Shown here: piece by piece, positions 59,850 to 60,722 of the stretch
Layout of the letters: each line of letters starts with the position of its first letter
How positions within the stretch are numbered: the first letter of the stretch is position 1
NCBI GenBank assembly: GCA_016206155.1
Contig: JACQSC010000001.1
Location: forward strand, 5,105-69,104
Direction: 5' to 3'
From: Candidatus Uhrbacteria bacterium
GTDB taxonomy: Bacteria > Patescibacteriota > Patescibacteriia > JACQRZ01
DNA: 64,000 nt
Translations under genes and position numbers: made by a program
The notes under the pieces: model-generated
What the model was told of the DNA's origin: nothing
Databases searched by the model: none
The model's input: only the letters and a program-made list of their open reading frames with translations

Positions 59850-60722
59850 ATGCGACTGATCGACACGCATTGCCATATTCAATTCGATGCGTATGACAAT
59901 GACCGCGATGCTGTCATTCATTCATGTGCAGAAAAAGAGATCGGATTGATGGTTGTCGGCTGTGACGAGAAGAGCAGCCGTGACGCGCTGGCGCTTGTTG
60001 AAAAAATGGGGTCAGGGATAATAGGGATAATGGGGTCAGGAGCCATTAATTTAATGGCTCCTGACCCCATTATCGACTGGTGCAGCGTGGGTCAGCATCC
60101 GACAGATAGCGGTCAGACCTTTGACTATAAAACATTTTACAATCTCGCGCGCAGTTCGAAAAAAGTACGCGCAATAGGGGAATGCGGGCTTGATTATTAC
60201 CATCTCGATGGTTTAGGGGACAGGGTTCAGGGTACAGAAAGACAGAAGGATTTATTTTTTCAGCATCTGAACCTCGCGCACGAATTGAATCTGCCGCTCA
60301 TCATTCATTGCAGAGACGCACACGATGATATGATTGAGATACTCGTTCATCGGTTTGGGATTGCAGACACCGTTTCTGCTGACACCGTTTCAACCCGCGA
60401 ACATGGAGTTCTGCACTGTTTCACCGGTACGGCGCGCGACGCGCAAAGCTATCTTGATTTGGGCTTTATGATTTCATTTACCGGCATCATCACCTTTACC
60501 GATCAGTATGATGACGTTGTGCGAACAGTACCGTTGGAAAAGATGCTTGTTGAAACCGATGCGCCATTCCTCGCGCCGGTCCCTCATCGCGGAAAACGCA
60601 ACTTCCCTGAGTACGTCGAGTATATCGCGCGTCGTATCGCAGAAATCAAAGACATTCCCTACGAAGAGGTCGCTCGCGTGACAACAGAAAACGCCAAACG
60701 ATTGTTCGGATTAACATTGTGA
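59850..60722 (+). CDS. tatD: TatD-family metal-dependent DNase carrying two in-frame repeat insertions
   Basis: LIDTHCHI, AIGECGLDYY, LPLIIHCRDA, HCFTG, ETDAPFL. Confidence 0.8.
   Translation: MRLIDTHCHIQFDAYDNDRDAVIHSCAEKEIGLMVVGCDEKSSRDALALVEKMGSGIIGIMGSGAINLMAPDPIIDWCSVGQHPTDSGQTFDYKTFYNLARSSKKVRAIGECGLDYYHLDGLGDRVQGTERQKDLFFQHLNLAHELNLPLIIHCRDAHDDMIEILVHRFGIADTVSADTVSTREHGVLHCFTGTARDAQSYLDLGFMISFTGIITFTDQYDDVVRTVPLEKMLVETDAPFLAPVPHRGKRNFPEYVEYIARRIAEIKDIPYEEVARVTTENAKRLFGLTL
60008..60072. repeat. in-frame palindromic element (GGGGTCAGG-AGCCATTAA/TTAATGGCT-CCTGACCCC) with a GGGATAAT direct-repeat leader inside tatD
   Basis: 37-nt perfect hairpin 60032-60068; adds about 25 aa (GSGIIGIMGSGAINLMAPDPIID) between conserved TatD blocks. 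Confidence 0.75.
60210..60237. repeat. G-rich heptamer block GGTTTAGGGGACAGGGTTCAGGGTACAG inside tatD
   Basis: Same GGGTWYA family as 23923 and 42181; encodes GLGDRVQGT. Confidence 0.6.

Follow-up and report, generated by a model that had tools for sequence, protein, structure and literature searches.

An in-frame palindrome within tatD

We examined a 64-kb stretch of the Candidatus Uhrbacteria contig JACQSC010000001.1 (hereafter the window), and in particular a palindromic element carried inside its tatD gene. The gene occupies 59850–60722 on the + strand and encodes a protein of 290 amino acids (aa) that matches Pfam TatD_DNase over its full length (1.4e-73). At 60026–60074 the coding sequence runs through a perfect palindrome of 49 bases, in which two 24-nt arms (60026–60049 and 60051–60074, 100% complementary) meet at a single central T. 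The sequence reads GATAATGGGGTCAGGAGCCATTAA-T-TTAATGGCTCCTGACCCCATTATC, a head-to-head dimer of two 24-nt units GATAATGGGGTCAGGAGCCATTAA; this and the other dimers described below are given without a strand. The palindrome is located between the TatD blocks ...ALALVEK and WCSVGQHP and keeps the reading frame, as a first-pass annotation had claimed in placing it between the ALALVEK and VGQHP blocks. It codes for ..IMGSGAINLMAPDPII.. within TatD, with MGSGAINLMAPDPI as the predicted hairpin-encoded peptide, and tatD reads the element in the sole frame of three that has no stop codon. The first-pass annotation had given the hairpin 18-nt arms; it is indeed perfect, but larger than that.

As single-stranded DNA (ssDNA), the palindrome is predicted to fold at -26.1 kcal/mol, against -4.6 ± 1.7 kcal/mol in 200 shuffles (z = -12.6), and as RNA at -41.6 kcal/mol. 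Across the window, a search for hairpins with perfect arms of 10 nt or more gave 34 raw matches (8 distinct), compared with 0–1 in shuffled windows. Abutting the left arm, on the + strand at 60003–60035, are a partial extra unit, AAAATGGGGTCAGG (60003–60016), and a 9-nt tandem duplication, AGGGATAAT repeated 2.4 times (60014–60035). The GGGATAAT leader recorded earlier is therefore present, but it is this duplication, preceded by the partial unit.

We aligned the protein with 26 orthologues (55–80% identity over aligned columns) and found 17 residues (~SGIIGIMGSGAINLMAP) unique to the TatD of the window; the gap relative to the Thermotoga maritima TatD structure 1J6O is 18 residues. The insertion thus amounts to some 17–18 residues, and not the roughly 25 first suggested. 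The catalytic residues and all invariant positions in the alignment are kept, the latter including H7, H9, E111, H153, H189 and D237. In an AlphaFold2 model (mean predicted local distance difference test score, pLDDT, 85.8) the insert is a low-confidence coil between helix 40–54 and strand 76–80 (pLDDT 51–72; block means 72, 51 and 76), at the alpha2-beta3 loop of TatD. Outside the insert, the fit of the model to solved TatD structures gives target-normalised template modelling (TM) scores of 0.86–0.89. Given this coil placement and the fit of the rest, the model indicates that the insert lengthens the helix 40–54/strand 76–80 loop of an otherwise ordinary TIM-barrel nuclease. The element is most probably translated, and the longer loop that it gives is most probably neutral.

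TatD has a second variable loop (residues 173–181, pLDDT <50), which is encoded across a 15-nt tandem duplication at 60362–60391. The duplication contains CTGACACCGTTTC, which resembles a reversed repeat core; the profile matches at 60365–60390 are weak, and the resemblance is suggestive, not established. In the tatD genes of three relatives (L001, L125 and L131), the second loop carries other inserts of 20–30 aa that start with GTCATTCCGAG.. and have inverted-repeat ends, and these look like yet another small element.

Sister copies and a transposase gene in the window

Units built around a common core, ATGG[G/T]GTCAGG, recur in the window. The 11-mer ATGGKGTCWRG has 7 occurrences where 0.16 are expected, and the inventory comes to five dimers, with spacers of 1, 6, 6, 3 and 23 nt, and at least two single units. 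A profile search of the window for further degenerate units returned the seeds and a few weak matches only. Four of the five dimers are inside open reading frames (ORFs) with Pfam support, namely tatD, metG, an M20 peptidase gene and uvrB.

The metG dimer (58365–58420) has perfect 25-nt arms, GAGAAAATGGTGTCAGGTTCCATTT, around a 6-nt centre and is in frame between the catalytic and anticodon-binding domains. It adds 11–17 aa (17 relative to L002, 11 relative to L004 and L005) and is missing in these three orthologues. The palindrome also makes mirror peptides, ..KWCQVPF..KWNLTPF.., in two spurious ORFs that overlap metG (58183–58662 on the + strand and 58342–58500 on the - strand), and such palindromes can seed false gene calls on both strands. 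Within the M20 peptidase ORF (20382–21503), a dimer at 20720–20773 has perfect 24-nt arms, GAAATTGGTGTCAAGTCCGAATTT, and adds about 16 aa in frame relative to 3GB0. Here too a 9-nt tandem duplication is found at the left edge (20710–20729), and in both the tatD and the M20 dimer the left edge alone bears one; replication slippage at the hairpin foot is a possible cause. The copy at 49981–50057 is degenerate (~81% complementary) and occupies the linker that joins the C-terminal UvrB domain to the UVR domain in uvrB. The fifth dimer, at 37805–37847, has GGGGTCAGGC.. arms that are 90% complementary and is intergenic, just after a giant ORF at 26565–37775. A single unit, GGATAATGGGGTCAAGATGTGTCT, on the - strand at 62306–62329 overlaps the stop codon of the ORF at 60732–62318.

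That the stem core would recur at 37805 and beside an insertion sequence had been noted in the first pass, and this held: GGGGTCAGG is found at 37805 and 37839, and GGTGTCAGG at 16557 and 17289, on both sides of a transposase ORF. The copies in metG, the M20 gene, uvrB, the intergenic spacer and the transposase flanks also bear out its expectation of further copies. Each unit can fold into a small hairpin with a stem of 6–7 bp and a loop of 8–9 nt containing GTCAGG. Between unit types the stems vary by compensatory changes (AAATGG/CCATTT, TAATGG/CCATTA, AAACCGG/CTGGTTT), and the core is conserved.

The transposase gene (16604–17293, + strand) encodes a Y1/HUH tyrosine transposase of 229 aa with NHVH at 59, WQ at 99 and YIELNP at 120. 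It matches Pfam Y1_Tnp (5e-17) and scores 70 bits against NCBIfam REP_Tyr_transpos (equivalog cut-off 80), compared with 22 bits against IS200 (cut-off 55). A PDB sequence search gave a marginal match to the E. coli TnpA-REP structure 4ER8 (E = 0.28), which served only for locating the HUH and Y motifs. Subclass 2.1 of the TnpA_Y1 enzymes, which has been equated with the TIRYT transposases and with the group-1 RAYTs of Bertels et al., 2017 (PMC5581495), has as its signature NHVH, W[EQ], YIELNP and a length of ~238 aa (Quentin et al., 2018; PMC6006769 Table 1). Since its motifs and length match this signature, the ORF is, on sequence grounds, a TnpA_Y1 subclass 2.1, TIRYT or group-1 RAYT gene. 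We rejected an IS200/IS605 assignment on the IS200 score, on a Y motif that is YIELNP and not Y---Q, and on the single copy in the window; a TnpA of the IS200 type has ~150 aa and is present in multiple identical copies.

Terminal inverted repeats flank this gene. The left repeat, GGAAACCGGTGTCAGGTCTGGTTTT (16550–16574, + strand), is 30 nt upstream of the start codon, and the right repeat, AAAACCGGTGTCAGGTCTGGTTTA (17280–17303, - strand), overlaps the 3' end of the ORF, with the TGA stop codon sitting within it; the two are inverted copies, one indel apart. Paralogous ORFs of about 40 codons bracket the whole unit (15921–16040, MPMSAIVQMIKKMNQEARCFF.., and 17376–17490, MSGIAHMINNMIQEASRFF..), each with a terminator-like hairpin and a stretch rich in GGAGG after it, and the transposase unit seems to have been inserted between tandem cassettes.

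Repeats of this type in other genomes

TIRYT genes are flanked by terminal inverted repeats (TIRs) that share the motif GGGGWSAS, and in some genomes the TIR repeats form moderately abundant families of singles, dimers and clusters, according to the sections on these genes in Di Nocera, De Gregorio and Rocco, 2013 (PMC3733652). The window resembles these families in its RAYT-like transposase of ~230 aa with NHVH, WQ and YIELNP and flanking GGGGWSAS-type inverted repeats, in the dispersal of the repeats as singles and dimers, and in the partial self-complementarity of some units. The core is GGGGTCAG, an exact fit to the motif, or GGGGTCAA-like in the tatD, 37805 and 62314 units; in the units of metG, M20, uvrB and the transposase flanks it is GGTGTCAG, which departs from the motif at one position. 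Three things differ: the host belongs to the candidate phyla radiation (CPR); the repeat beside the TIRYT of the window has GGTG instead of GGGG; and four of five dimers here are in frame in housekeeping genes, whereas the passages of PMC3733652 on intragenic copies give them for GTAG and CGTC REPs and not for TIR repeats.

TIRYT homologues are widespread among uncultured lineages, CPR included, and we examined five of the loci. A TIRYT 65% identical to that of the window (L128) carries the same repeat, ATCGGTGTCAGGTCTGGTTT, in its flanks; another (L130) is flanked by AAATGGGGTCAAGTCCCATTT; and one from Magasanikbacteria (L129) is flanked by a double GGGGACAG/GGGGACAC repeat. This double repeat, GGGGACAGTTCTAAAGGGGACAC, is found at 9511–9540, 9932–9961 and 10656–10685 of its locus, the third copy within the 3' part of an upstream clpB-like ORF. 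TIRYT genes from further CPR bacteria also have repeats of this sort in their flanks. In Luteimonas (L069) the TIRYT flanks have AAATGGTGTCAGGGACAATTT, and dimers of the AAATGGTGTCAGGGACAATTT unit occur close by. A metagenome scan for the tatD/metG-type unit returned 27 loci, nearly all with single units GAAAATGGGGTCAGGAGCCATTT. On one of these contigs (L138), GAAAATGGGGTCAGGAGCCATTT stands 17 nt upstream of the start codon of a TIRYT homologue and is identical to the tatD unit over 19 nt. As a matching unit adjoins a TIRYT gene there, sequence comparison identifies the tatD arms as a bona fide TIRYT repeat, belonging to a TIRYT other than the one in the window.

We also scanned for palindromes with these termini by the pattern ATGGKGTCAGG-N(4-34)-CCTGACMCCAT, using one genome per species. 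At least 119 loci match, where we estimate about 4 by chance, and a TIRYT homologue is also present in 3 among these 8-kb loci. Among the matches listed are Proteobacteria, Myxococcales, Firmicutes, Elusimicrobia, Chlamydiae, Nomurabacteria and others. Together with the intragenic REPs that PMC3733652, in its account of such copies, gives for several species, this overturns the initial impression that the palindrome is unusual outside a few lineages. Elsewhere, the palindromes fall within long open frames less often than random positions do (35% against 84%; 124 palindromes, among the matches listed), a measure that is crude in GC-rich genomes, where most spanning frames looked spurious when inspected. 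The sole convincing in-frame case is in an Elusimicrobia metagenome-assembled genome (L021, 2996–3025), where a 30-nt dimer, ATGGGGTCAGGTCTGAAGACCTGACCCCAT, is in frame in the GMP synthase gene guaA (..SSLADGNGVRSEDLTPLPHPG..), so that in-frame copies of this palindrome type exist outside CPR.

The first-pass annotation had likened the element to the Rickettsia palindromic elements (RPEs), and the in-frame behaviour does correspond: in both cases a palindromic repeat is in frame in still-functional genes of a small genome. RPE-1, from the elements that Ogata and colleagues are said to have described in 2000, is reportedly roughly 100–150 bp long and found in Rickettsia only, and we know of no dedicated transposase for RPEs. 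We rejected RPE membership in favour of a TIRYT-type repeat on the missing CGTC tag, the length of 49 bp and the Candidatus Uhrbacteria host, a separation drawn from the description of RPEs and not from a consensus alignment. RPE-4 and RPE-6 are CGTC REPs in the treatment of Rickettsia repeats in PMC3733652. That treatment also has intragenic GTAG and CGTC REPs in Opitutus terrae, Rickettsia conorii, Thauera and others, with dimers encoding 20–30 aa. As described there, these resemble the present copies: the dimers add about 20 aa and keep the frame, lie in what are presumed to be loops or linkers, and have uvrA, uvrB and tRNA synthetase genes among their hosts (here uvrB and metG). They differ in that the units here are without GTAG or CGTC at the hairpin foot, their conserved part being the internal GTCAGG-containing core, and both families were rejected because the defining tag is missing at the unit foot.

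REPINs and their RAYTs (Bertels and Rainey, 2011; PMC3116915) resemble the window in three ways: two short inverted units, a short spacer apart, fold into a single long hairpin; units flank a Y1 transposase gene of which there is one copy; and the arms evolve in concert. Canonical REPINs, unlike the dimers here, consist of GT[AG]G REPs outside genes; a genome has tens to hundreds of them, and their partners are the group 2/3 RAYTs of Proteobacteria (PMC3116915). We rejected a canonical REP or REPIN assignment, as no unit has GTAG or GTGG at its foot and four of five dimers are inside ORFs. In subclass 2.4, REPs are also known within the tnpA-REP genes, where they leave the frame intact and occupy a variable region at the periphery (PMC6006769), but those REPs, canonical or 'double-foot' GTAG ones, sit in the transposase gene itself. 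A miniature inverted-repeat transposable element was rejected as well, since no direct repeats flank the dimers and the duplications are tandem and one-sided only. Literature searches by core sequence returned unrelated papers only.

In its sequence features, namely the transposase signature, the flanking repeats, their motif, the dispersed copies and a tatD-type unit at a TIRYT (L138), the element qualifies as a TIRYT-associated repeat. We regard it as very probable that the tatD palindrome is a REPIN-like dimer made of two inverted ~24-nt units of the TIRYT terminal-inverted-repeat type.

Several points weigh against this. To our knowledge, no subclass 2.1 enzyme has been characterised biochemically and no transposition by one has been observed. 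The single-unit hairpins are weak (about -3 kcal/mol, z -1.4 to -2.9), and we found no target-site duplication or target-site signature at the dimers. Because its repeats have another stem (AACCGGTGTCAGGTCTGGTTT) than the tatD unit, the TIRYT of the window may not be the cognate enzyme; it is the only TIRYT within the 64 kb, and none with tatD-type repeats was found there. The cognate transposase, whose flanks are expected to have GAWAATGGGGTCAGGAGCCATT, probably lies outside the window, and the copy numbers of units given here likewise refer to the window and not to the whole genome. No clean empty tatD site was found among the orthologues, the closest of which (L001 and L125) keep palindromic remnants, and the right junction of the site differs between the window and L001. 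Finally, Quentin et al. (PMC6006769) did not find REP-like sequences near subclass 2.1 genes.

Origin of the tatD copy and a proposed mechanism of spread

The alignment that the first-pass annotation had proposed shows the segment missing in all 26 orthologues, yet not as a clean presence or absence. At the same codons, L001 has a short perfect palindrome, AGAAAATGGGG-gctga-CCCCATTTTCT, and L125 another, AAAAAGGGG-ggtga-CCCCTTTTT, the two differing at a compensatory pair. In L131 a core-like AAAATGGGGCAGG stands without a partner arm, and the more distant orthologues L002 and L004 have an unrelated loop. Synonymous positions are near saturation (56% identity between the window and L001, 53% between the window and L125), and the perfect 24/24 palindrome therefore cannot be an unmodified relic of an ancestor shared with these relatives. 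Three histories would account for this: elements may have landed at the site repeatedly, favouring remnants as targets; the arms may have been homogenised through the hairpin; or template switching may have re-extended a remnant. The full-length perfect copy would date from after the lineage parted from its closest sequenced relatives.

These remnants bear on a local, non-mobile origin, in which a native quasi-palindrome (AAAATGGGG...CCCCATTTT, still in relatives) was made perfect by intramolecular template switching and the family likeness reflects a mutational hot-spot motif. The short palindromes of L001 and L125 and the unpartnered core of L131 would suit such an origin. Removing 45 nt from the sequence of the window gives EKMGAPDPIIDWC, close to the EKMGADPIFC of L001; the left-edge tandem duplications point to slippage; and the arms are perfect despite the near-saturated synonymous divergence. 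Although template switching may well have a part in shaping or renewing the arms, it leaves the family unexplained: the same 11-nt terminus and unit architecture are present at four other genes or spacers of the window, units flank TIRYT genes here and in other genomes and sit in at least 119 unrelated loci, and the tatD unit equals the TIRYT-adjacent unit of L138 over 19 nt. We therefore consider a local origin unlikely.

The compensatory pair between L001 and L125 would also be expected of a hairpin selected for a function in transcripts or DNA, such as a processing site for RNase III or another enzyme, a translational pause or a protein-binding site, and kept by compensatory evolution. Perfect arms are found in three genes, the copies differ at about 5 positions that are mirrored in both arms, and the 24-bp RNA stem (-41.6 kcal/mol) would be a duplex of RNase III size. 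Such a role nevertheless appears highly improbable. The copies are in functionally unrelated genes and spacers, and most orthologues of TatD and metG are without them. An Rfam scan of the whole window found no family at the gathering score, and we dropped the reading as a known RNA family. By the crude frame measure above, palindromes are rarer in long open frames of other bacteria, and the association with transposase genes is a simpler account.

Amplification chimeras can yield perfect inverted repeats, and the source is an assembly of an uncultured CPR bacterium, so we weighed a chimeric inverted duplication arising in assembly or amplification. The element is short and frame-keeping, however, and several members of its family that differ in sequence are found in the window. 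Independent assemblies from other samples contain related elements and remnants as well. The chance that the palindrome is an artefact of this kind seems to us minute.

How might a dimer of TIRYT-type units have reached tatD? Small hairpins on ssDNA are the substrates recognised by IS200/IS605 TnpA and by E. coli TnpA-REP. By analogy with these enzymes, a TIRYT would bind the small hairpin formed by each unit on ssDNA and would cut and rejoin at the hairpin foot, and at the replication fork the dimer, folded as a single-stranded hairpin, would move or be copied. With a coding share of ~92% in the window (a crude estimate), most landings would be in genes, and a copy would survive only in a tolerant loop or linker, with the frame kept and the TGA of CCTGAC not read as a codon. 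This pattern fits all four intragenic copies. High coding density together with the survival of only tolerated in-frame copies would account for the intragenic position of four of the five dimers.

Intragenic REPs, RPEs, REPs in tnpA-REP genes and the TIR repeat families of TIRYT genes are already known. What is new here is the CPR host lineage and the location of most copies inside genes, with an indication that dimers of conserved terminus are widespread partners of subclass 2.1. The in-frame palindromic decoration of proteins described in Rickettsia and a few other bacteria is thereby extended to the candidate phyla radiation, where intergenic space is scarce and the elements are for that reason mostly inside genes. 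The proposed link ties an oddity of CPR housekeeping genes to a concrete agent, a TIRYT/RAYT-type ssDNA transposase and its repeats, and provides a defined candidate substrate (~24 nt with the conserved GTCAGG core) for biochemistry on subclass 2.1 enzymes. For annotation, it would explain why loop insertions specific to a lineage, and spurious antisense ORFs, appear in these genomes. A wider proposal is tentative, and we think it more doubtful than probable: that palindromic dimers ending ATGGGGTCAGG...CCTGACCCCAT, which are present across many bacterial phyla, are the cognate mobile elements that have long been missing for the largest RAYT class (subclass 2.1/group 1, reported to lack REPs), and that in gene-dense CPR genomes they repeatedly give rise to loop insertions that are specific to a lineage and affect essential proteins. 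On this view the hairpins would stay perfect at a given site over long periods, either because they are homogenised with the hairpin as template or because the elements insert again into their own remnants.

The window holds further repeats. A second, unrelated palindrome family has a conserved 25-nt centre, ACTTGGGGCTCCCTTCGTCAAATCG, between variable complementary arms. One copy (53986–54075) is a 27-aa in-frame insert in uvrC that is missing in the L002 orthologue; the other (54892–54961) has perfect 24-nt arms and spans the end of uvrC and the start of dus. The giant ORF at 26565–37775 encodes 3736 aa, and beyond the intergenic dimer that comes after it there is a 17-nt zero-loop perfect palindrome with a T-run, AAATCAACGGCTAAACC/GGTTTAGCCGTTGATTT (37855–37888), probably the terminator of that ORF. 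Tandem repeats of 7 nt (CTAACCC, CTAAACC, AACTCGT, AGGGTTC, AACCCCA and others), in 3–5 copies each, occur at 3504–3533, 23970–24006, 38744–38779, 42181–42210, 42884–42915, 58818–58840 and 60215–60237. They are mostly intergenic, with one within the ORF at 39761–42793 and one within tatD, and are reminiscent of cyanobacterial heptamer repeats.

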